Virus record (IMG/VR): IMGVR_UViG_2778261184_000007
Span: 1-34,194 of that record
Strand: one strand, 5' to 3'
Source: a virus
Lineage: Duplodnaviria; Heunggongvirae; Uroviricota; Caudoviricetes
Length of the DNA stretch: 34,194 nucleotides
Part shown: positions 19,665 through 33,719 of the stretch, piece after piece
Layout: every line of letters starts with the position of its first letter
Numbering within the stretch: position 1 is the stretch's first letter
Translations under genes and position numbers: made by a program
The notes under the pieces: model-generated
Seen by the model: only the letters and a program-made list of their open reading frames with translations
Told to the model about the DNA's origin: nothing
The model's database searches: none

Positions 19665-19760
19665 GAGTATTTTTATAAACCTTTTTCCATTTTTAATCCT
19701 TTTTAGATCCTTTTTAGGCGTCGCTGGAGCCAGTAGTGGCGCGGGCTGTAGAGGAGGCTG

Positions 19761-19877
19761 GTGTAAGATTTGCCCTCAATTAAATACGATCGGTGTAAGA
19801 TTTGCCCTCAAAAGGTGTAAGATTTGCCCTCAAAAGGTGTAGTAATTGCCCTCAAAGTGATGTAAAAATTGCCCTCA
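19761..19877 (+). repeat. Five direct iterons (GTGTAAGATTTGCCCTCAA and variants), 22-bp phased after the first pair
   Basis: Copies at 19761, 19793, 19815, 19837, 19859; an inverted copy at 19621-19640. Confidence 0.85.
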
Positions 19878-19901
19878 CCATTTGAAGGATCACACAGGGT
19901 T

Positions 19902-20657
19902 ATGAACAGAGCGGAATTAACAGCAAAAGCAGTCAGCCTGATTGAGTCAGCGACACCTATTAGTCGTAGTTTGGCACAAGCCAATGAGATCACGGAGGCT
20001 GCTTATCACCTGACTCGCGACCAAAAGCGACTGTTGTTTATTGTGGTGGGAAGACTTCGCTATGCTTCTAAGGATGGCGTTCTTGGTTCAGGTGCCTGTG
20101 AGTTGACGGTCAACGAATATGCAGAGATGTATAATTTGCCCTCTGCTGAAGCCAGCAAGGATATTCGTAAGGCCATTTCAGGGCTTAGCGAGAAGAAAGT
20201 TACGATATATAACCCTGATGAATCGACCGAATCAGAAGACAGTTATGAGTCTTATCCTTGGATGATTAAGGATGCCTATTCACCACGGCGCGGGACTTAC
20301 ATTATTCATCTTAATCCATATCTCATGCCGTTTTTTACTCTGCTTGATAAGAGATTCACAAGGCTGAATTTTACCGAAGTATCTCGCCTTACAAATCCTT
20401 ATTCTATGCGGCTTTATGAGTCCTTATGCCAGTACAGGAAGGATGATGGAAGCGGCTTTGCCATACTTGGCGTCGAATGGATGCGGGAGCGTTATGGGTT
20501 ACCAAAAAGCTATCAGCGGTATGCCGAATTTAAGAGAAGTTTTTTAACGAAGGCTGTAGCAGAGATTGAAAAAAATACAAAAATGAAAATAGTCTTCTCA
20601 GAGGTGACGGAAGGCGGCAAAGTTACCAGGATAAAATTTACCTATCAGCAGTCTTAA
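19902..20657 (+). CDS. Iteron-binding replication initiator, Rep_3 (pSC101 RepA-like) family, about 251 aa from ATG 19902
   Basis: Motifs matching pSC101 RepA as recalled: …ELTVNEYAEMYNL…VTIYNP… and …NPYSMRLYESL…; flanked by iterons. The ORF track starts 33 nt earlier inside the iteron array. Confidence 0.8.
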   Translation: MNRAELTAKAVSLIESATPISRSLAQANEITEAAYHLTRDQKRLLFIVVGRLRYASKDGVLGSGACELTVNEYAEMYNLPSAEASKDIRKAISGLSEKKVTIYNPDESTESEDSYESYPWMIKDAYSPRRGTYIIHLNPYLMPFFTLLDKRFTRLNFTEVSRLTNPYSMRLYESLCQYRKDDGSGFAILGVEWMRERYGLPKSYQRYAEFKRSFLTKAVAEIEKNTKMKIVFSEVTEGGKVTRIKFTYQQS

Positions 20658-26438: not shown

Positions 26439-28136
26439 TCACTTTTTTTCGTTAACCTTGCCTGTCAGCATGTCGATAGCACCTTCTTTGGCGCGAGTCA
26501 GACGCAGGCGGGTGAAGTAGTTTTCACCGTTGCGAGGATGTACTTCGTTGATGGCACTGCCCCAGAGGGTGGTACGGTTAACGAGAGACGGATTGGTTTC
26601 GTGCACGTAAGGGATTGCTGGGACTGCATCACCAGCAATCAGACCGGCTTTACCGATGCCTTCGCCACGCCCATAGAAGAAGATGTCATCCAGCCCGAAG
26701 TCATATCCCTGTGCCTGGAATTGCTCACAGACAGGTTGCGGCACTTCGTAAATACGAATCGTGCCAAACAGGGTGCCGATGTACTGTACATACGGCGACT
26801 GAACGTAACCTGGTGCGATCTGGAAGTGCTGTGGAGGCAGAGAGCGCAGGAAGTTCGCGGCGTCACCACCAGCAAAGCCGCCACGAATACCCGTTGTCAG
26901 GGTACGATTTGCCATTTCTTGAGACAGAGCGTTTACTACGTGACGCAGGAGGCCGACCCAGGACTCATAGTTTTGAGCTTCCGGCAGAGCCACATCAAAT
27001 TCACGACCATAAACGGTATGGAATACCAGGGTGCGCAGACGCATGATGTCGGTTTCATGGGAGATCCAGTTACGCATCGCGGAGAACTGAAGTGCCGCTA
27101 ATTCAAGGCCGTGCTCACGGCTTAAATCGGATGCGGACATTACCGTGTGTTCGGAAGCAATTACGTACTGGGACGGACGAACTTCGTACTTACGCATAGC
27201 CTGGTTGATCACAGGAATCAGGCTTGGATTGCGCTCGATGTTAATTTCGACCTGAACAGCAATTTCAGTACCTTCTGGCGGAGCCTGGGTAAATGTAATG
27301 TCAATGACACCAGTGTCATAGGCAACTTTGGCAGTCGCTGAGAAAGCATTACCTTTGCTGTCTTTAGCATTGAAATAAAGGTTGCCATCGCCGTCGTCAA
27401 CTTTGGACGGTTTGCGGTTGATCAGCAGTTTGTTATAACCAGCGCGAAGCGGGCAGGATTGTCCCTCAAAATTTTGGATGTCGAACTGGAAGGTTTTGGT
27501 GCTGCCATCCCCTTTAGTGGAAAGGGTATACAGGCGCTTCATTTGAGAATAAACACCAGCTGACTGCATATTCAGTTCGTCACCTTGTTTGAAGGTGCCG
27601 AATTTTGTGCCTGCTACGTTGACCAGTTCATAAATATTTGACTCGTCACGATCACAAGGAACAAAAGTACAGGCATCACTGGTAGCAGCGCCCAGAGAGG
27701 CAGGCAGTATTAGTGCAGCATATTGAGCAACTTTCATTACGCCGTCAGAGCTACGCATTGATTGCGCGACAGACTCAAACATTGCCTTACCCGTGCCTTC
27801 ATGGGTATCACTGGCACATTCAGTCATCAGGCGTTCAAGAGCCATGTGTGCGTTCGCCAGGATGTCACTTGCCGGGTAATGACCATGTTGACGTTTATAC
27901 TCATGCAGAGACATAGCCCACCCACCAGTGATCTGACGAGCGACCTCTGGATTTACGCCTTCAAACATAGGCACTTTCTGGATTGCTTTATCCAGGTTTT
28001 CCATCATTACTGCCTGGTCAGCAATCATGTTGCCTGCTGCATCGGTGGTCGGATCGACGGTCATAGCCATGACGCTTGCCGCCCGATTCATAATCTCGCG
28101 CTCGCGATCACGAGCTGGCTGAATGTTTTTATTCAC
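26439..28136 (-). CDS. Large virion structural protein (565 aa), candidate major head protein (gene 23-position)
   Basis: First gene after a divergent AT-rich promoter region; size fits a capsid precursor with an N-terminal delta region; no alignment done. Confidence 0.45.
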   Translation of the reverse strand: MNKNIQPARDREREIMNRAASVMAMTVDPTTDAAGNMIADQAVMMENLDKAIQKVPMFEGVNPEVARQITGGWAMSLHEYKRQHGHYPASDILANAHMALERLMTECASDTHEGTGKAMFESVAQSMRSSDGVMKVAQYAALILPASLGAATSDACTFVPCDRDESNIYELVNVAGTKFGTFKQGDELNMQSAGVYSQMKRLYTLSTKGDGSTKTFQFDIQNFEGQSCPLRAGYNKLLINRKPSKVDDGDGNLYFNAKDSKGNAFSATAKVAYDTGVIDITFTQAPPEGTEIAVQVEINIERNPSLIPVINQAMRKYEVRPSQYVIASEHTVMSASDLSREHGLELAALQFSAMRNWISHETDIMRLRTLVFHTVYGREFDVALPEAQNYESWVGLLRHVVNALSQEMANRTLTTGIRGGFAGGDAANFLRSLPPQHFQIAPGYVQSPYVQYIGTLFGTIRIYEVPQPVCEQFQAQGYDFGLDDIFFYGRGEGIGKAGLIAGDAVPAIPYVHETNPSLVNRTTLWGSAINEVHPRNGENYFTRLRLTRAKEGAIDMLTGKVNEKK

Positions 28137-28294
28137 GGTTAAGCCCTAAATTCGGGCGCGGCGTGAAGGTTCTTTTGACGGGCTAACAATACCTACTTTG
28201 TGATTTAGTCAATAGGTTTAGTAAAATAAAATATATTAACACTCATGTTGTTATGTGATTTAATTTTAGTTTTCTAACACAAAACATTAGAGTT

Positions 28295-28687
28295 ATGGCG
28301 TATCGAATCTTTGTTTCGTATAAAAATGGCGCTAAGAGCCACTCTCTGAACACAACAAGTCGCTTTCTTGTTGAGGCGCAGTTGGCATCAATTCTTGCCG
28401 AAAGTGAGATACTCTCGCTCGCTGAACGGATCGTTATCCAGTTTTCTGGTAGAGATATACTCAATGTCCCCGCCCTCACCCCGGCATCCGAAGTTATGGA
28501 ATCAATTAAATGGCCCGTATGCGGATGTCCTGCCAGGGTTGAAGAGCCGGTAACTGCAACGCTCTACATGCCGAAAGCTGTAAGAGATTGGCTTGCTATG
28601 GTTGGCAATGGGAAAGTCAGTGCTGGACTTCGCAAGTTAATTGAAATGGCAGATATTCCTGAGTTAAAAAATGCATGGCGACAATGA
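28295..28687 (+). CDS. Hypothetical 130-aa protein, first gene of a rightward two-gene accessory operon
   Basis: Preceded by a very AT-rich region (28200-28290); no recognisable family. Confidence 0.5.
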   Translation: MAYRIFVSYKNGAKSHSLNTTSRFLVEAQLASILAESEILSLAERIVIQFSGRDILNVPALTPASEVMESIKWPVCGCPARVEEPVTATLYMPKAVRDWLAMVGNGKVSAGLRKLIEMADIPELKNAWRQ

Positions 28688-28703
28688 GTAAACAAGGGAC
28701 AAA

Positions 28704-29162
28704 ATGAGTCACGTTAACCCATCAAAAACACAATATCGCTTAATGCTGGCGATCGCGTCAGCTATACCAACCAGCCTGAATCCCCCGACAGGCTATCCCG
28801 CTGTTGTTGATGATTGTTTTCAGTATTACGGAGAAGACATCCTGAGCCAGTCCAAAGCGCTCAAGCAGTTATGTAAGGCAGGTATTCTTCACTGTATCGG
28901 AGATCCGGACGATTTTGTTGTTATGCTGGCGGATCGTGACTCTTTTCTACTGTCCTGGAAAGCCGGTGCGCGCGAAGCACGTTTGGGGAATGGTATTGGT
29001 TACATAGACTATAGTGATTGTCCGCTGGCATTTGCTGGTGGATATATGCATTGGCATGAGCGAAATAGAGGCCGTCAGCGTCAGTATCGCTTGAGTGACT
29101 TTAACGTCTGTCACGGTTTCGAAGAAGCTGACAGCCAGGACATCTGGCTTCAGGAGCCTTGA
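28704..29162 (+). CDS. Hypothetical 152-aa protein, second gene of the accessory operon
   Basis: SD AAGGGA upstream of ATG; 16-nt spacing from the upstream gene; Cys/His-containing (…DCFQYY…LHCIGDPDD…YSDCPLAFAGGYMHWHERNRG…CHGF…). Confidence 0.5.
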   Translation: MSHVNPSKTQYRLMLAIASAIPTSLNPPTGYPAVVDDCFQYYGEDILSQSKALKQLCKAGILHCIGDPDDFVVMLADRDSFLLSWKAGAREARLGNGIGYIDYSDCPLAFAGGYMHWHERNRGRQRQYRLSDFNVCHGFEEADSQDIWLQEP

Positions 29163-29482
29163 TCCCCCTTCCCTTCCCAAATCTCCCTGTTTCTTTGGTT
29201 ATTCAGTGCGTTTCGTTGGTTGCATTCGTCGATCGTGCTGAATAACTGTTCAGCGTATGTCGGATACTTGTTTAACAGCACTGGCGTGTCCTCTGGCACT
29301 AAACAAGGGGAGTAATCAATCAGATTTGCCTGCGGCTTGCTGGTGGCTTCTACGGTAATTTTCACTGGCACGCTGGTTGATGGCTTTTGCCCGTTCCCGC
29401 TGCATCCTGATAACGTCATCAGGCACACGCACATCGTTAATCCCAGCACGGCGCAACGCATTTTCAAGGCGAGTGATTTCAT
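29150..29482 (-). CDS. Outer-membrane spanin (o-spanin, Rz1-like lipoprotein, 110 aa)
   Basis: Signal peptide with lipobox LSGC (MKSLALKMRCAVLGLTMCVCLMTLSGC); starts inside the i-spanin gene in another frame and extends beyond it (overlapped architecture); SD GAGAGGAA. Confidence 0.7.
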   Translation of the reverse strand: MKSLALKMRCAVLGLTMCVCLMTLSGCSGNGQKPSTSVPVKITVEATSKPQANLIDYSPCLVPEDTPVLLNKYPTYAEQLFSTIDECNQRNALNNQRNREIWEGKGDQGS

Positions 29483-29789
29483 TCTGGCTTTCCTCTCGTT
29501 GTTTGATTAGGTTGGCATTCAGTTCTGCTGTTTTGCGCTGGTACTCCTTTTCCAGTGCTTTAATTCTTTCGTTTTCGGTCAGCATGGCTGAGCGAGCGTT
29601 CTCACTTAACTGTAATGCGGTAGAAAGCGTGTTGTTCGTGCTTTCCAGTTGTGATTTTGAGTCTTCAAGCGATCGGACATACCTGATGTGTTCGATAACT
29701 GCCGTCGTTGTTCGGTAAATTCCAGAAATGGCTAAAAGCGCAATTACAATCAAAATTATCTTTTTCAAAACCATCCTCTCCAGGTTCAT
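29316..29789 (-). CDS. Inner-membrane spanin (i-spanin, Rz-like, 157 aa)
   Basis: N-terminal TM helix (KKIILIVIALLAISGIY) followed by a long coiled-coil periplasmic domain. Confidence 0.7.
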   Translation of the reverse strand: MNLERMVLKKIILIVIALLAISGIYRTTTAVIEHIRYVRSLEDSKSQLESTNNTLSTALQLSENARSAMLTENERIKALEKEYQRKTAELNANLIKQREESQNEITRLENALRRAGINDVRVPDDVIRMQRERAKAINQRASENYRRSHQQAAGKSD

Positions 29790-29844: not shown

Positions 29845-30654
29845 CTATGGTTCCTTTTTGGTGTTCTTTTGGAGCGCATCGATAACGCCTTGTGGCATGA
29901 TTAAACTGATTGCCGGACTCATTACTGCATCATCCAGTAGAGAACCAGTTAACGTGATGGCGACAGCGTTCTCTAAACCTTTGGTTGCCTGAGTGGTTGA
30001 CGTTTTAATGCGACCTGTAAGGGCTACGACACCCTCACTTGCTGAGTTAATTTCGGAGAGTAAAACTTCGGCGGCTGTCACTGCTTCCCGTAAAGCATCA
30101 ATTTCATCCTGAGTAATGACTGGAGCCTGAGCGCCCCCAGCACCACCCTGTCCACCATTGCTTTCACCACCACCAGCACTTCCGGCAGCTTCAATTTTTG
30201 CGTTAATGGCGTTCATGGCGGTTTTCAGAGCATCAAGTTTTAGCGCCGTCAATGCGTCCGTTAGAGATTGCGGAATGGAAACATTCCCCATTCCCTCAAC
30301 AAGGGCGAAAGCAGGTATGGGGGTCAGCTCGTTACCTTTTGCGTAGCATTCCCAGCCAATCTTCATCTGTAACAGCTCTGATGGCTTGGTGTATGGGGAA
30401 AGAGAATCAGCCAGTGATGAAGACGCTTTGCTGGCCTCATTGAGCTGTTCAGAAAAGCCAAGCAATTGAGTAGTCCAGGCCGAAACAGAATCAGGATAGG
30501 TTTTATCGGCGTGAACTATTCCCTGTATGGCGCTGGCGAGCGATGAGGCTTTTACAGAAGCTGCCCGGCTTATGGTTATAGATTCTGGTGTAGAGATACC
30601 GGCATCTGACAGAATTTTGAAGGCTTTAACTTCACCTATTGAATCAAGCATTAT
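29845..30654 (-). CDS. 269-aa Ser/Ala/Gly-rich protein translationally coupled to the PAAR-like gene
   Basis: ATGA overlap with the upstream gene stop; internal Gly-rich linker GSAGGGESNGGQGGAGGAQAP. The ORF track extends upstream on an alternative start. Confidence 0.5.
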   Translation of the reverse strand: MMLDSIGEVKAFKILSDAGISTPESITISRAASVKASSLASAIQGIVHADKTYPDSVSAWTTQLLGFSEQLNEASKASSSLADSLSPYTKPSELLQMKIGWECYAKGNELTPIPAFALVEGMGNVSIPQSLTDALTALKLDALKTAMNAINAKIEAAGSAGGGESNGGQGGAGGAQAPVITQDEIDALREAVTAAEVLLSEINSASEGVVALTGRIKTSTTQATKGLENAVAITLTGSLLDDAVMSPAISLIMPQGVIDALQKNTKKEP

Positions 30655-30935
30655 GCAACCTGAAAAATATCCTCGCCGTTGGCGATAACAGAACCACAAG
30701 AAAGCGGATCGCCTACACAGACAACTCCCTTTCCACCTATCGAAAACCATACTCGCGTCGATACAGCTGCCCCTGGATGTGCACTGTTACCGTCAGTGTG
30801 ACTGGGAAACATGGCACCATCTACAACAACTGGCTTACCGTTAACGGTGAACCAGGGAACGGTTTCAGCTACCAGTCGCGGCGGAAATCCTCCGTGACCA
30901 GAACAAAGGGTGTCGCTGGTGGCTATTGCGCTCAT
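30651..30935 (-). CDS. PAAR-like spike-tip domain protein (94 aa)
   Basis: Three-repeat pattern reminiscent of PAAR proteins: …CSGHGGFPP…FTVNGKPVVVDGAMFPSH…GVVCVGDPLSCGSVIANGEDIF…. Confidence 0.55.
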   Translation of the reverse strand: MSAIATSDTLCSGHGGFPPRLVAETVPWFTVNGKPVVVDGAMFPSHTDGNSAHPGAAVSTRVWFSIGGKGVVCVGDPLSCGSVIANGEDIFQVA

Positions 30936-30979
30936 TCTTCATCTCCTGGTTATCCTCCTATTGTCATCACTTTGTTATT

Positions 30980-31176
30980 TCGTCATTCAAACTGAGAGTT
31001 AAATTTCGGAATATTTTTGTATTCTCAATTCATTCTCAAATAAATCTCACTGTCAGACCATCATTCATTTGGTGATTAAGATATTCTCAAAATGAACTCA
31101 ATAATCACTCTTTTTTATCTCTTTTGGTGTGGATTTTTGGTTGCTTCTCTTTTAAAATTGCATTTTGATTCTCAAA
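30980..31176. repeat. Centromere-like repeat region upstream of parM (parC-type)
   Basis: Repeated ATTCTCAA(A) units at 31021, 31032, 31083, 31168 and TCATTCA variants in an AT-rich divergent promoter region. Confidence 0.5.
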
Positions 31177-31201
31177 TGTGTCTCAGAAGTGGAGCAAGAA
31201 G

Positions 31202-32158
31202 ATGCGCATTTTTATCGATGATGGTTCAACCAATATCAAAATGCTGTGGGAGCACGACGGGGAAACTCGCACTCACATCAGCCCTAACAGCTTTAAGCGC
31301 GGATGGTCAGCAACATTTGGTGCGGGCAAGCCGTTTAACTATGTCATTGACGACGAAAAGTATTCGTATGATTTGATCTCGCCAGATGTTCTGCCGACGA
31401 ATAACGTGGAATGGCAATACAGCCCGCTTAACGTCCTGGCTGTTCACCATGCCCTGCTGACAAGTGGCATTGAGCCGCAGGAAGTAGAAATTGTGGTCAC
31501 GCTGCCTCTGGCGGAGTTTTACGACGACGACGCGCAATACAATCTCGATAACATCGAGCGCAAGAAAGCCAGCCTTATGCGCCCCGTCACGCTGAATAAA
31601 GGCAATGTGTTCACGATTAAGAAAGTTACGGTACGCCCGGAGTCTATTCCGGCAGGAATTGGCCTGTGCGACAATCTGAACCCTGCCCATTCTGTTCTTA
31701 TCGTCGATTTGGGTGGAACTACCCTTGATGTTTCAATGGTCGCCGGGCAAATGACGGCAGTTTCCCGTGTTTTTGGCGATTCGAATCTTGGCGTCTCTCT
31801 GGTTACCAGGGAAGTAAGGCAAGCACTTGCCAGAGCCAATACCGAAACGTCAAATTACAATGTCGATCAGCTCATTATTAACCGCCACGATGAAGATTAT
31901 CTGAACGACAATATCAATGACCCATCAGCGGTTGGTGATGTGAAAAAGGCCATTGCCGCAAGCATTGACCGTCTGCGTACCCGCGTTCTTGATGTGATTG
32001 GCGACTTTAAAGGATATACGCATGTCATGGTGATCGGTGGTGGCGCACCGCTGGTGGCAGATGCAATTCGCGAGCAAGTTAATATTCGTGATGACCGTTT
32101 CTTCGTGGCGGATGACCCGCAACTTGCTCTTGTTCATGGCCTGAAAGCAATCGGTTAA
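31202..32158 (+). CDS. parM: Actin-like plasmid segregation ATPase ParM/StbA (318 aa from ATG)
   Basis: N-terminus MRIFIDDGSTNIKMLW…HISPNSFK…, …NVEWQYSPLNVLAVHHALLTSG… and DLGGTTLD match the R1/R100 ParM/StbA pattern; SD GGAG 7 nt upstream. Confidence 0.85.
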   Translation: MRIFIDDGSTNIKMLWEHDGETRTHISPNSFKRGWSATFGAGKPFNYVIDDEKYSYDLISPDVLPTNNVEWQYSPLNVLAVHHALLTSGIEPQEVEIVVTLPLAEFYDDDAQYNLDNIERKKASLMRPVTLNKGNVFTIKKVTVRPESIPAGIGLCDNLNPAHSVLIVDLGGTTLDVSMVAGQMTAVSRVFGDSNLGVSLVTREVRQALARANTETSNYNVDQLIINRHDEDYLNDNINDPSAVGDVKKAIAASIDRLRTRVLDVIGDFKGYTHVMVIGGGAPLVADAIREQVNIRDDRFFVADDPQLALVHGLKAIG

Positions 32159-32165
32159 CGAGGTA

Positions 32166-32510
32166 ATGTCCATGTCTCAGGAACGTAAGAAAGTGATGAT
32201 TTATCTTCGCCCAGAGGCTTATGCCAATGAAAAGGCGGCGAGCGAGAAGATAAAAAAACATAGCGATATGGCAAGAACCGCATTGTTGGCAGGGCTTGCG
32301 CTGGGAGAAGTCGATAGCAGGCTTCCAGGATTACTGGCTTCCCTGCTGACCGAAGACAATAACCCGGAGCTGATCCGAAAAATGCTGGCATCCTTCCTGG
32401 AACTACCAGCTGCGGTTGAGGAGCGCCCTGCCTCCATTGAGCCAGTGAAGGAGCAAGTTGTTGCCAAAAGCGCGTCGGCGCGCAATCTGGCTGACTCTCT
32501 ACCTGATTGA
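32166..32510 (+). CDS. parR: ParR/StbB-like centromere-binding adaptor (114 aa)
   Basis: Directly downstream of parM; …RTALLAGLALGE… resembles the ParR helix. Confidence 0.6.
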   Translation: MSMSQERKKVMIYLRPEAYANEKAASEKIKKHSDMARTALLAGLALGEVDSRLPGLLASLLTEDNNPELIRKMLASFLELPAAVEERPASIEPVKEQVVAKSASARNLADSLPD

Positions 32511-32528
32511 CAGAAGATGTGCTGGTTT

Positions 32529-32554
32529 AAGGCTGCAAATTGCAGCCTTTTTTA
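32529..32554 (+). terminator. Rho-independent terminator after parR
   Basis: GGCTGC-AAATT-GCAGCC followed by TTTTTTA. Confidence 0.7.
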
Positions 32555-32583
32555 TGCATTAATGGTGTCTAATTGGTGTTAAT

Positions 32584-32764
32584 CTGGAACCAGTTAGGTG
32601 CTGTTATGGTGTAATTTTGTATCTGGTTCCAATTTGGGGCTGATTTCGTGTTAAATAGGATGCAATATAAGGTGTATTTGGTCTGATTGATGTTATACTT
32701 TGCCAAACATTCATGACTCCATTATAGAGCCTGTCCCGCATCAAAAAGGCTCTTATCTGGAACC
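32584..32764. repeat. Operator/centromere-like repeats upstream of the ParA-type gene
   Basis: CTGGAACC at 32584 and 32757 and the inverted CTGGTTCC at 32623, interspersed with GGTGT repeats. Confidence 0.45.
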
Positions 32765-32797
32765 GTTTTGATACCAAAATCACACCGAGGAACGGAT

Positions 32798-33439
32798 ATG
32801 ATTATATTGGTAGCCAGCCAAAAAGGTGGCTGTGGCAAATCAACCACCAGCGTAAATATTTGTGCGGAGCTTGCCCGCGCAAATAAGGACGTAGTTCTAC
32901 TTGATGCAGATAAGCAAGGAACATCTGCCCGTTGGGCATCGGACCGTAATGCGGCAGAGGTTTCTCCAGTAATTCATTGCGTCCAGAAGTTTGGGAATAT
33001 TCGTGAAACACTTCTTGATCTGGACAAGCGTTATGAATTTGTGGTTGTTGATACCGCTGGTCGTGATAGCAAAGAAATGCGCACCGGTATTACTGCGGCG
33101 GATGTTTTGCTTGTTCCATTCAGGCCATCTCAGCCAGATTTAGACACTCTGGCGCATTTTGTTGAAGTCTTTGAAGAGGCTTTGGATCTGATGCCTAATC
33201 CTAGCATTAAGGCGTGCGCAGTCTTAACAATGGCCCCATCCAATCCGGTTGTGAATGAAGCCAATGAGGCCAAAGAGTACCTGGCTGAATATCCGCAACT
33301 GAAGTTGCTGAAAACCATCATTCGCGATCGCAAGGTTTACCGCGATTGTATGGCTGAAGGGAAGGGCGTTGTTGAGATGGACAACGGGAAAGCTAAAGGT
33401 GAAATCCAGATGTTGGTTAAGGAGTTATTAAGTGATTAA
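32798..33439 (+). CDS. Small Walker-type partition ATPase (ParA/ParF-like, 213 aa from ATG)
   Basis: Deviant Walker A KGGCGKST near the N-terminus; size typical of type Ib ParA; SD GAGG 7 nt upstream. The ORF track adds 10 codons upstream. Confidence 0.85.
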   Translation: MIILVASQKGGCGKSTTSVNICAELARANKDVVLLDADKQGTSARWASDRNAAEVSPVIHCVQKFGNIRETLLDLDKRYEFVVVDTAGRDSKEMRTGITAADVLLVPFRPSQPDLDTLAHFVEVFEEALDLMPNPSIKACAVLTMAPSNPVVNEANEAKEYLAEYPQLKLLKTIIRDRKVYRDCMAEGKGVVEMDNGKAKGEIQMLVKELLSD

Positions 33440-33719
33440 GCCTCGTAAATCGGTAAAAGCCCCCGAAGTAAAAGACCTCGATCTTGAACGCCGAATTGAG
33501 GCTTTTGCCAGCAAAGCTGATTTGGTGCCGGGTGAGCAACCAGAAGACAACAAAGTGCTCGATAAGGACGCCCCACGTGATTTTAAATCCATTCGTGTTG
33601 GCTTCAATGAATACGAGTACCAGGTACTTGATGCGTTAAGCAAAAAGCATAATCGCAGCAAATTGAATATGATCCGCCATGCTATCCTCATGTTAGCGGA
33701 GTCTGAGGAAGCAAAATAA
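33432..33719 (+). CDS. Small ribbon-helix-helix-type partner protein (ParG-like, 95 aa, GTG start)
   Basis: Overlaps the parA stop; C-terminal …VGFNEYEYQVLDALSKKHNRSKLNMIRHAILMLAE… looks like an RHH DNA-binding domain; SD AAGGAG. Confidence 0.5.
   Translation: MIKPRKSVKAPEVKDLDLERRIEAFASKADLVPGEQPEDNKVLDKDAPRDFKSIRVGFNEYEYQVLDALSKKHNRSKLNMIRHAILMLAESEEAK

Follow-up and report, generated by a model that had tools for sequence, protein, structure and literature searches.

The stretch analysed here, referred to as the window, comprises 34,194 nucleotides of the Caudoviricetes record IMGVR_UViG_2778261184_000007 of IMG/VR, and the subject of this report is a pair of small genes which it carries between the major capsid gene and the spanin genes. 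The 1.1-kb region around the pair shows 98.5% sequence identity to Escherichia phage D6, a P1-like plasmid prophage, and the element is a D6-type P1-like phage-plasmid. The two genes correspond to orf52 and orf53 of D6, both annotated in the D6 record as 'hypothetical protein'. They are co-oriented on one strand, without a terminator between them, and the short intercistronic spacer contains a Shine-Dalgarno sequence for orf53 that can be read from the sequence directly (Table 1). All neighbouring genes are on the minus strand: to the left the capsid gene with the sheath and baseplate genes beyond it, to the right the two spanin genes followed by upfB and the PAAR-like upfC. At its stop, orf53 shares 13 bp with the 3' end of the o-spanin gene. 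D6-type phage-plasmids are common; the locus is carried by 101 of the 5,426 complete E. coli genomes, plasmid-borne every time, with a coverage of less than 80% in 11 of the 101.

An earlier note on this DNA had pointed to two tightly linked genes encoding polypeptides of 130 and 152 amino acids on the strand opposite to their neighbours, and both reading frames are confirmed. Comparison with diverged D6-like loci (dS 0.4 to >2) gave ratios of nonsynonymous to synonymous substitution rates (dN/dS) of 0.04-0.14 for orf52 and 0.02-0.03 for orf53, a constraint comparable to that on the capsid and parM genes. Because of these values (0.02-0.14 overall) orf52 and orf53 are considered real genes under strong purifying selection. 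Position 28140, which the note gave as the beginning of the pair, marks the start of the intergenic region and not of a gene. The note also placed the pair in an AT-rich pocket, with a region typical of a horizontally acquired promoter, and compared it to two-gene inserts. An AT-rich segment is indeed present in the control region, of which the G+C content is 33% over the full length (28137-28294) and 22% in the right-hand 99 bp (28196-28294). The genes themselves, with 46.8% (orf52) and 48.8% (orf53), match the window mean of 46.4%; thus, there is no compositional sign of foreign origin, and the idea of an acquired insert is further contradicted by the positional conservation of orf52 described below.

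Table 1. Features of the orf52-orf53 locus and of its surroundings. Positions are those of the whole window.
Feature	Position	Strand	Remarks
orf52	28295-28687	+	ATG start; D6_52; phrog_7830
orf53	28704-29162	+	ATG start; D6_53; phrog_8101
Intercistronic spacer	28688-28703	+	16 nt; Shine-Dalgarno AAGGGA at 28694-28699
Divergent control region	28137-28294		capsid gene leftward, orf52 rightward; conserved blocks in seven aligned D6-like loci
Operator-like motif TTAATTTTAGTTTTCTAACACAAAACAT	28260-28287	+	core TTTTCTAACA at 28270-28279
Ribbon-helix-helix-like motif of ORF52 (predicted), VTATLYMPKAVRDWLAMVGNGKVSAGLRKLIEMA	28550-28651	+	residues 86-119; strand, helix, G-x-G-K-x-S turn, helix
Conserved C-terminal core of ORF53	28932-29120	+	residues 77-139; DRDxFL...G...G....Y.DY...AF..G..H...(~20)...CHGF
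Major capsid gene	26439-28136	-	P1 gp23-like; left neighbour of orf52
o-spanin gene	29150-29482	-	Rz-like; 110 amino acids; right neighbour of orf53
i-spanin gene	29316-29789	-	Rz-like; 157 amino acids; overlaps the o-spanin gene
Candidate late promoter element TTGACTAAATCACAAAGT / TTGACnAAATnACAAAGT	28195-28212	-	before the capsid gene; conserved in D6-like loci
Second copy of this element	30969-30986	-	one mismatch; head of the upfC-upfB-spanin operon
upfC homologue	30651-30935	-	94 amino acids
Iteron-like direct repeats	~19760-19825		upstream of the Rep_3-family gene
Rep_3-family initiator gene	19869-20657	+	D6 orf42
Adjoining partition systems	31178-33719	+	
ParM/StbA gene	31178-32158	+	
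StbB gene	32166-32510	+	
ParA-like ATPase gene	32768-33439	+	second partition system
Partner of the ParA-like ATPase	33432-33719	+	95 amino acids

The AT-rich part of the control region contains an operator-like motif with its core, TTTTCTAACA, 15 nt before the ATG of orf52. In the alignment of seven D6-like loci the core is invariant, also in the most diverged members, though the flanking sequences differ. In phage P1 the C1 repressor acts on 22 dispersed asymmetric operators of 17 bp and controls lpa, repL, ref, dmt, ban, ssb and kilA (PMC8546580, PMC4713147). The P1 operator consensus, ATTGCTCTAATAAATTT, has no match in the window nor in the D6 genome, and therefore a de novo motif search was performed. 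A k-mer census revealed that the TTTTCTAACA family is the most repeated 13-mer family of the D6 genome: the exact core is present 10 times in 91 kb, against about 0.17 expected occurrences, and nine of these copies are in unannotated DNA. The extended consensus is AAATTAGTTTTCTAACA(C/T)A. With a position weight matrix about 15 sites were found in D6, as compared to 0-4 in shuffled sequences, and the site before orf52 has the highest score of the genome (33.9 bits). Other sites are located at 116/199 (c1/cre), 4632 (lpa), 21267 (icd-ant), 22459 (repL), 64116/64136 (hrdC-dmt, an inverted pair), 72202 (mat/simB) and 76637 (ref), and further ones precede pdcB and the operon downstream of cre. These positions mirror the map of the C1 operators of P1 and P7; for example, Op(dam) is annotated in the P7 record before upf64.0-hrdC-dam, at the place equivalent to the hrdC-dmt site of D6.

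The closest known counterparts of such an arrangement are the C1-controlled early operons of P1 and P7 (ref, upf64.0-hrdC-dam, ban and lpa), which have a short asymmetric operator overlapping the promoter just before the first gene. As in these phages, the putative orf52 operator is one of ca. 15-22 dispersed copies found before the same genes (c1, lpa, ref and the dam operon), and late structural operons surround the operon. The operators differ in sequence, being AATTAGTTTTCTAACAC(A) in D6 and ATTGCTCTAATAAATTT in P1, and have only the TCTAA core in common. Unlike D6, P1 and P7 carry no homologue of orf52 or orf53 and have upfA and a rep-par region at that map position. UpfA of P7, with an equal length of 130 amino acids and a nearby map position, was examined as a possible equivalent of ORF52 and is unrelated.

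Motifs of the TCTAA type are also found in more distant elements. The Pantoea plasmid pFC61912-B_D has another version, [AT]TCTAA[AG][GAT]A, of which nine out of 11 copies are intergenic (intergenic DNA makes up 13.7% of the plasmid). These copies mark the same genes as in D6, among them the orf52 homologue and the post-cre operon that holds the orf53 homologue. Similar sequences are present 5' of the orf52 homologues of Citrobacter and Xenorhabdus, and in locus L007 a D6-like core is found in the ref promoter, upstream of the operon with its orf53 homologue. This distribution suggests that repressor and operator have co-diverged between P1-like lineages around a common TCTAA core. By analogy with P1 and P7, the motif before orf52 is probably a D6-type C1 operator that overlaps the orf52 promoter; located only 15 nt before the start codon, the site would have to overlap or follow the promoter. 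Because of the position and the conservation of the motif, orf52-orf53 is most likely a member of the C1 regulon.

The two genes have different distributions. In each D6-like locus that was retrieved (from E. coli, Salmonella, Raoultella, Enterobacter and metagenomes) orf52 and orf53 are adjacent at this site, with the exception of E. coli plasmid pPEC399_3; sequence identities among these loci are 43-81% for orf52 and 79-98% for orf53. More distant homologues of orf52 (26-45% identity) are encoded on plasmids of Pantoea, Citrobacter, Enterobacter and Xenorhabdus, where in every case the homologue is the first of the genes that run divergently from the capsid gene. At least five lineages of P1-like phage-plasmids thus have orf52 at this conserved position beside the capsid gene, and what follows it varies: no gene in Pantoea, genes for NinX and for RelE/ParE, NadS and HicB proteins in Xenorhabdus, and a run of at least nine small genes annotated without function in Citrobacter. 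In pPEC399_3 an inverted icd-ant cassette has replaced orf53. This cassette (locus L034, 3599-4812) encodes an icd-like product and an ORF6N antirepressor, resembling an immI-type module, and leaves an orf52 of 134 codons with a slightly altered C-terminus. All D6-like loci examined have orf52, while orf53 has been exchanged for icd-ant in at least one E. coli plasmid.

Homologues of orf53 in other P1-like elements (30-60% identity) are found elsewhere, in the early region that follows cre and close to dut or ref, with dut, ref, rdgC and methylase genes as neighbours. Vibrio phage douglas 12A4 has its homologue in the early DNA-metabolism region as well. Several of these elements lack orf52 (loci L007, L009, L011, L013 and L015, and Vibrio phage douglas), just as pPEC399_3 and the plasmids of Citrobacter and Xenorhabdus have orf52 but no orf53. 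Pantoea pFC61912-B_D has both, the orf52 homologue by the capsid gene and the orf53 homologue 60 kb away in a different operon with the order cre, a gene for a 110-amino-acid protein, the orf53 homologue, a helix-turn-helix gene and dut. The genes upstream of the orf53 homologues in six other elements are mutually unrelated, and no shared partner family is hidden among them. Because orf52 and orf53 are separate outside the D6-like elements, synteny identifies orf52 as a conserved anchor gene which heads a variable slot and orf53 as one passenger of this slot in D6-like elements; to judge from these comparisons, orf52-orf53 is not an ancestral unit. The check on conservation that the earlier note had proposed accordingly shows a pair that is adjacent in D6-like elements only.

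The region after cre is itself syntenic across P1-like lineages, as a series of cre, a gene of ca. 110 codons, a variable gene and dut. The variable position is taken by the orf53 homologue in L015 and in Pantoea, and by orf116 (158 amino acids) in D6 (L028 31073-31890, orf117-orf116). The 110-amino-acid product of D6 orf117 shows 37% identity to its counterpart in L015. A paralogous relation between orf116 and orf53 was considered and rejected, since the two are unrelated.

Sequence and profile searches gave no match for ORF52 or ORF53 in Pfam, NCBIfam, PADLOC (E<=1) or the PDB sequences, in agreement with the earlier description of both proteins as uncharacterised. Both are full-length members of PHROG families, ORF52 of phrog_7830 (E=7e-79) and ORF53 of phrog_8101 (E=1e-97); neither family has an assigned function.

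ORF52 starts with an α/β domain (residues 1-70), which a linker connects to a helical C-terminal region, and its AlphaFold monomer model has a mean predicted local distance difference test score (pLDDT) of 74. The residues Y9, G12, S15-H16 and T20 of the N-terminal domain are invariant. This domain has a weak fold resemblance to the small antitoxins Dmd and VapW, which is not significant. In the C-terminal region, residues 86-119 can be read as a ribbon-helix-helix (RHH)-like motif, consisting of a strand (TLYMP), helix A (KAVRDWLAMV), a turn (GNGKVS) and helix B (AGLRKLIEM). The model predicts helices at residues 94-103 and 108-118 with a pLDDT of ca. 84, and within the family P93, L100, G104 and G106 are invariant and S109 is nearly so. 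Alignment of residues 86-119 with hhalign to Arc, CopG and NikR, of which the template sequences were entered by hand, gave the expected register with P=0.0016 and a probability of 16%. The suggestion in the earlier note that the C-terminus of the first protein might bind DNA is compatible with this motif, and it is plausible that ORF52 binds DNA through it. The resemblance to RHH regulators (Arc, Mnt, CopG, the N-domain of NikR and Aca-type autorepressors) concerns the order of strand, helix, G-x-S turn and helix in register and the position of orf52 at the head of its own operon; unlike in these proteins, the motif of ORF52 is C-terminal to an additional conserved domain of 70 residues. A short tail (IPELKNAW) is conserved in the closer relatives of ORF52 but not in the distant homologues.

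The family of ORF53 is very small. Among 1.84 billion cluster representatives there were 23 profile matches, none of them annotated, and one (P0040) is a repeat artefact. All 21 tested members match phrog_8101, and the family is tied to P1-like phage-plasmids, with a further occurrence in Vibrio phage douglas 12A4. In an alignment of 21 members with 26-87% identity the invariant positions are F81, G88, G95, Y100, F110, G113, H116, C136, H137 and G138, most of them in the C-terminal half of the protein, where they define a core without structural or profile match. The scattered Cys and His residues of the second protein had been proposed to bind a metal or to form an active site. Of these, H116, C136 and H137 are invariant, whereas the cysteines of DCFQYY, LHCIG and DCP are not conserved.

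Taken together, we think it somewhat more likely than not that orf52-orf53 is an early transcription unit of the D6-type phage-plasmid which is repressed by C1 in the prophage, and which consists of an anchor gene for a possibly DNA-binding protein and a passenger gene for an accessory protein. Transcription would start at an AT-rich promoter overlapping the putative D6-type C1 operator. The C1 repressor would keep the operon silent in the plasmid prophage, and the genes would be switched on after infection or induction. ORF52 may be a dimeric DNA-binding protein in which the C-terminal RHH-like motif is combined with the small conserved α/β domain, and likely targets of its regulation would be its own operon or the control region of the capsid gene next to it. 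ORF53 would be an independent early accessory protein with an invariant His...Cys-His core; to judge from the neighbours of its homologues, it may function in DNA metabolism or in host takeover.

Several points weigh against this explanation. The assignment of the motif to C1 is by positional analogy with P1 and P7, and the -35 and -10 hexamers of orf52 could not be placed convincingly. Sigma-70 and terminator scans of the sequence gave hits at background level, and placement of the hexamers by comparing the operator-bearing promoters was dropped since the answers were inconsistent. For ORF52, the RHH families of Pfam gave no match, nor was there any profile match in Pfam or the PDB; the hhalign probability is low and was obtained with hand-entered RHH sequences, and helix A would be about four residues shorter than the canonical one. 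The AlphaFold model of ORF53, based on 10 close homologues, is unusable (pLDDT 45), and because structure prediction failed the biochemical role of this protein is a guess from its gene neighbourhood.

The locus can also be viewed as a type II toxin-antitoxin (TA), abortive-infection or addiction module, with ORF52 as the autoregulating, DNA-binding antitoxin and ORF53 as the toxin. Similar to phd-doc of P1-like plasmids and relE-higA of D6, orf52-orf53 is a tightly spaced operon on a low-copy plasmid prophage, with two genes that encode small proteins. As the identities given above show, orf52 evolves at a higher rate than orf53; it encodes a possible RHH motif with a short tail as well as the N-terminal domain that faintly recalls Dmd and VapW. 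The pPEC399_3 variant, with orf52 kept and orf53 lost, is of the type of remnant that TA systems leave behind. However, the proteins match no toxin, antitoxin or defence family in the databases searched, and outside the D6 lineage the pair is not co-inherited: the homologues are in different operons of the Pantoea plasmid, those of orf53 follow unrelated genes in six other elements, and those of orf52 stand alone or before unrelated genes. The IPELKNAW tail is not kept in distant relatives, and D6 already possesses phd-doc and relE-higA. A C1-type operator would moreover imply repression in the lysogen, the opposite of what an addiction module needs, and the putative operator likewise points to a repressed early lytic operon instead of a lysogen-expressed function such as superinfection exclusion. 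The TA and exclusion modules named in the earlier note are thus disfavoured, and we regard a TA, abortive-infection or addiction function as quite improbable.

Somewhat less improbable, though still unlikely, is an anti-defence or host-takeover locus in which the slot behind orf52 gathers exchangeable early counter-defence genes and ORF52 joins an inhibitor-like domain to an Aca-like autorepressor domain. The content downstream of the conserved leader gene differs by lineage, control appears to be early and repressor-dependent, the passengers are small uncharacterised genes as is typical of phage early regions, and orf53 homologues occur among early DNA-metabolism genes. On the other hand, there is no homology to known anti-defence proteins and the structural likenesses do not rise above noise, the passengers include TA genes and the icd-ant immunity cassette, which are not counter-defence genes, and orf53 is as conserved as the capsid gene, unlike the usual fast turnover of such genes. 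About the same low probability is given to the proposal that ORF52 regulates late (capsid) expression or plasmid maintenance through the shared divergent region or the partition loci, with orf53 as cargo. Since orf52 is missing from P1 and P7, which share the capsid gene and its late promoter, the gene is dispensable for late transcription in the family, even though it is always divergent from the capsid gene with a conserved control region in common. RHH proteins are commonly centromere-binding or copy-control proteins, and the ParM/StbB and ParA-like loci are 2-4 kb away; D6, however, has two complete partition systems with small DNA-binding partners of their own. A direct repeat, TGTGATTTA, which the capsid promoter element has in common with the region before orf52, would fit a shared regulator, but it is only partly conserved in the other D6-like loci.

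The reading as a probable C1-regulon operon with a conserved anchor and a swappable passenger turns two hypothetical proteins into a testable picture, and the locus is by this account a neat but otherwise unexceptional example of how phage genomes are organised. From the motif a candidate consensus is obtained for the operators of D6-type repressors, of use in annotating these elements and in considering heteroimmunity with P1. Should the slot behind orf52 prove to hold genes for counter-defence or host takeover, further genes of this type could conveniently be sought there. A more far-reaching interpretation, which we consider doubtful, is that the capsid-divergent orf52 marks an unrecognised repressor-controlled variable locus of interchangeable early effectors, with ORF53 representing a new enzyme or inhibitor family and ORF52 a new two-domain regulator. 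In that case the target of ORF53 would be host DNA metabolism or immunity as the lytic cycle begins, and ORF52 would gate the locus as a fusion of an RHH domain with a small domain of sensor or inhibitor type.

The leftward operons on both sides of orf52-orf53 share a different motif, TTGACnAAATnACAAAGT (Table 1). Both D6 and the window have it only twice, once before the capsid operon and once before the upfC-upfB-spanin operon, and it is a candidate for the D6-type late, Lpa-dependent promoter element of these neighbouring operons, not of orf52. The motif is unlike the LP23 promoter annotated in P7, which has the -22 box AAGTGACTT plus TAAAAT.

The spanin genes were recognised by their matches to PHROGs ('Rz-like spanin'), the o-spanin to those of the Rz1/o-spanin type and the i-spanin to those of the Rz/i-spanin type. 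The o-spanin has a lipoprotein signal with the lipobox LSGC. In the D6 record both are 'hypothetical', and orf54 is called as a protein of 73 amino acids without lipobox, of which the start is probably mis-called. The pair is apparently the positional equivalent of mlp and ppfA (Upf62.4 and Upf62.7) of P1 and P7. Beyond upfB, the UpfC homologue just reaches the threshold of the Pfam PAAR motif (27.2 bits, cut-off 27.0); P1-like phages thus encode a PAAR-like spike-tip protein beside upfB.

Further to the right are the two adjoining partition systems, one composed of ParM/StbA and StbB and the other of the ParA-like ATPase and its small partner. At the other side, the region of the Rep_3-family initiator gene is a plasmid replicon located among tail genes. 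The iteron-like direct repeats upstream of this gene consist of three copies of AGGGCAAATCTTAC (D6 45699-45760), and copies of GGGCAATTTTTAC are present on both sides of the rep gene. Finally, the Pantoea plasmid pFC61912-B_D (94 kb) contains 11 copies of the Chi-containing 11-mer CTGCTGGTGGC, nine of them on one strand, and in locus L009 related words containing GCTGGTGG are the most repeated.

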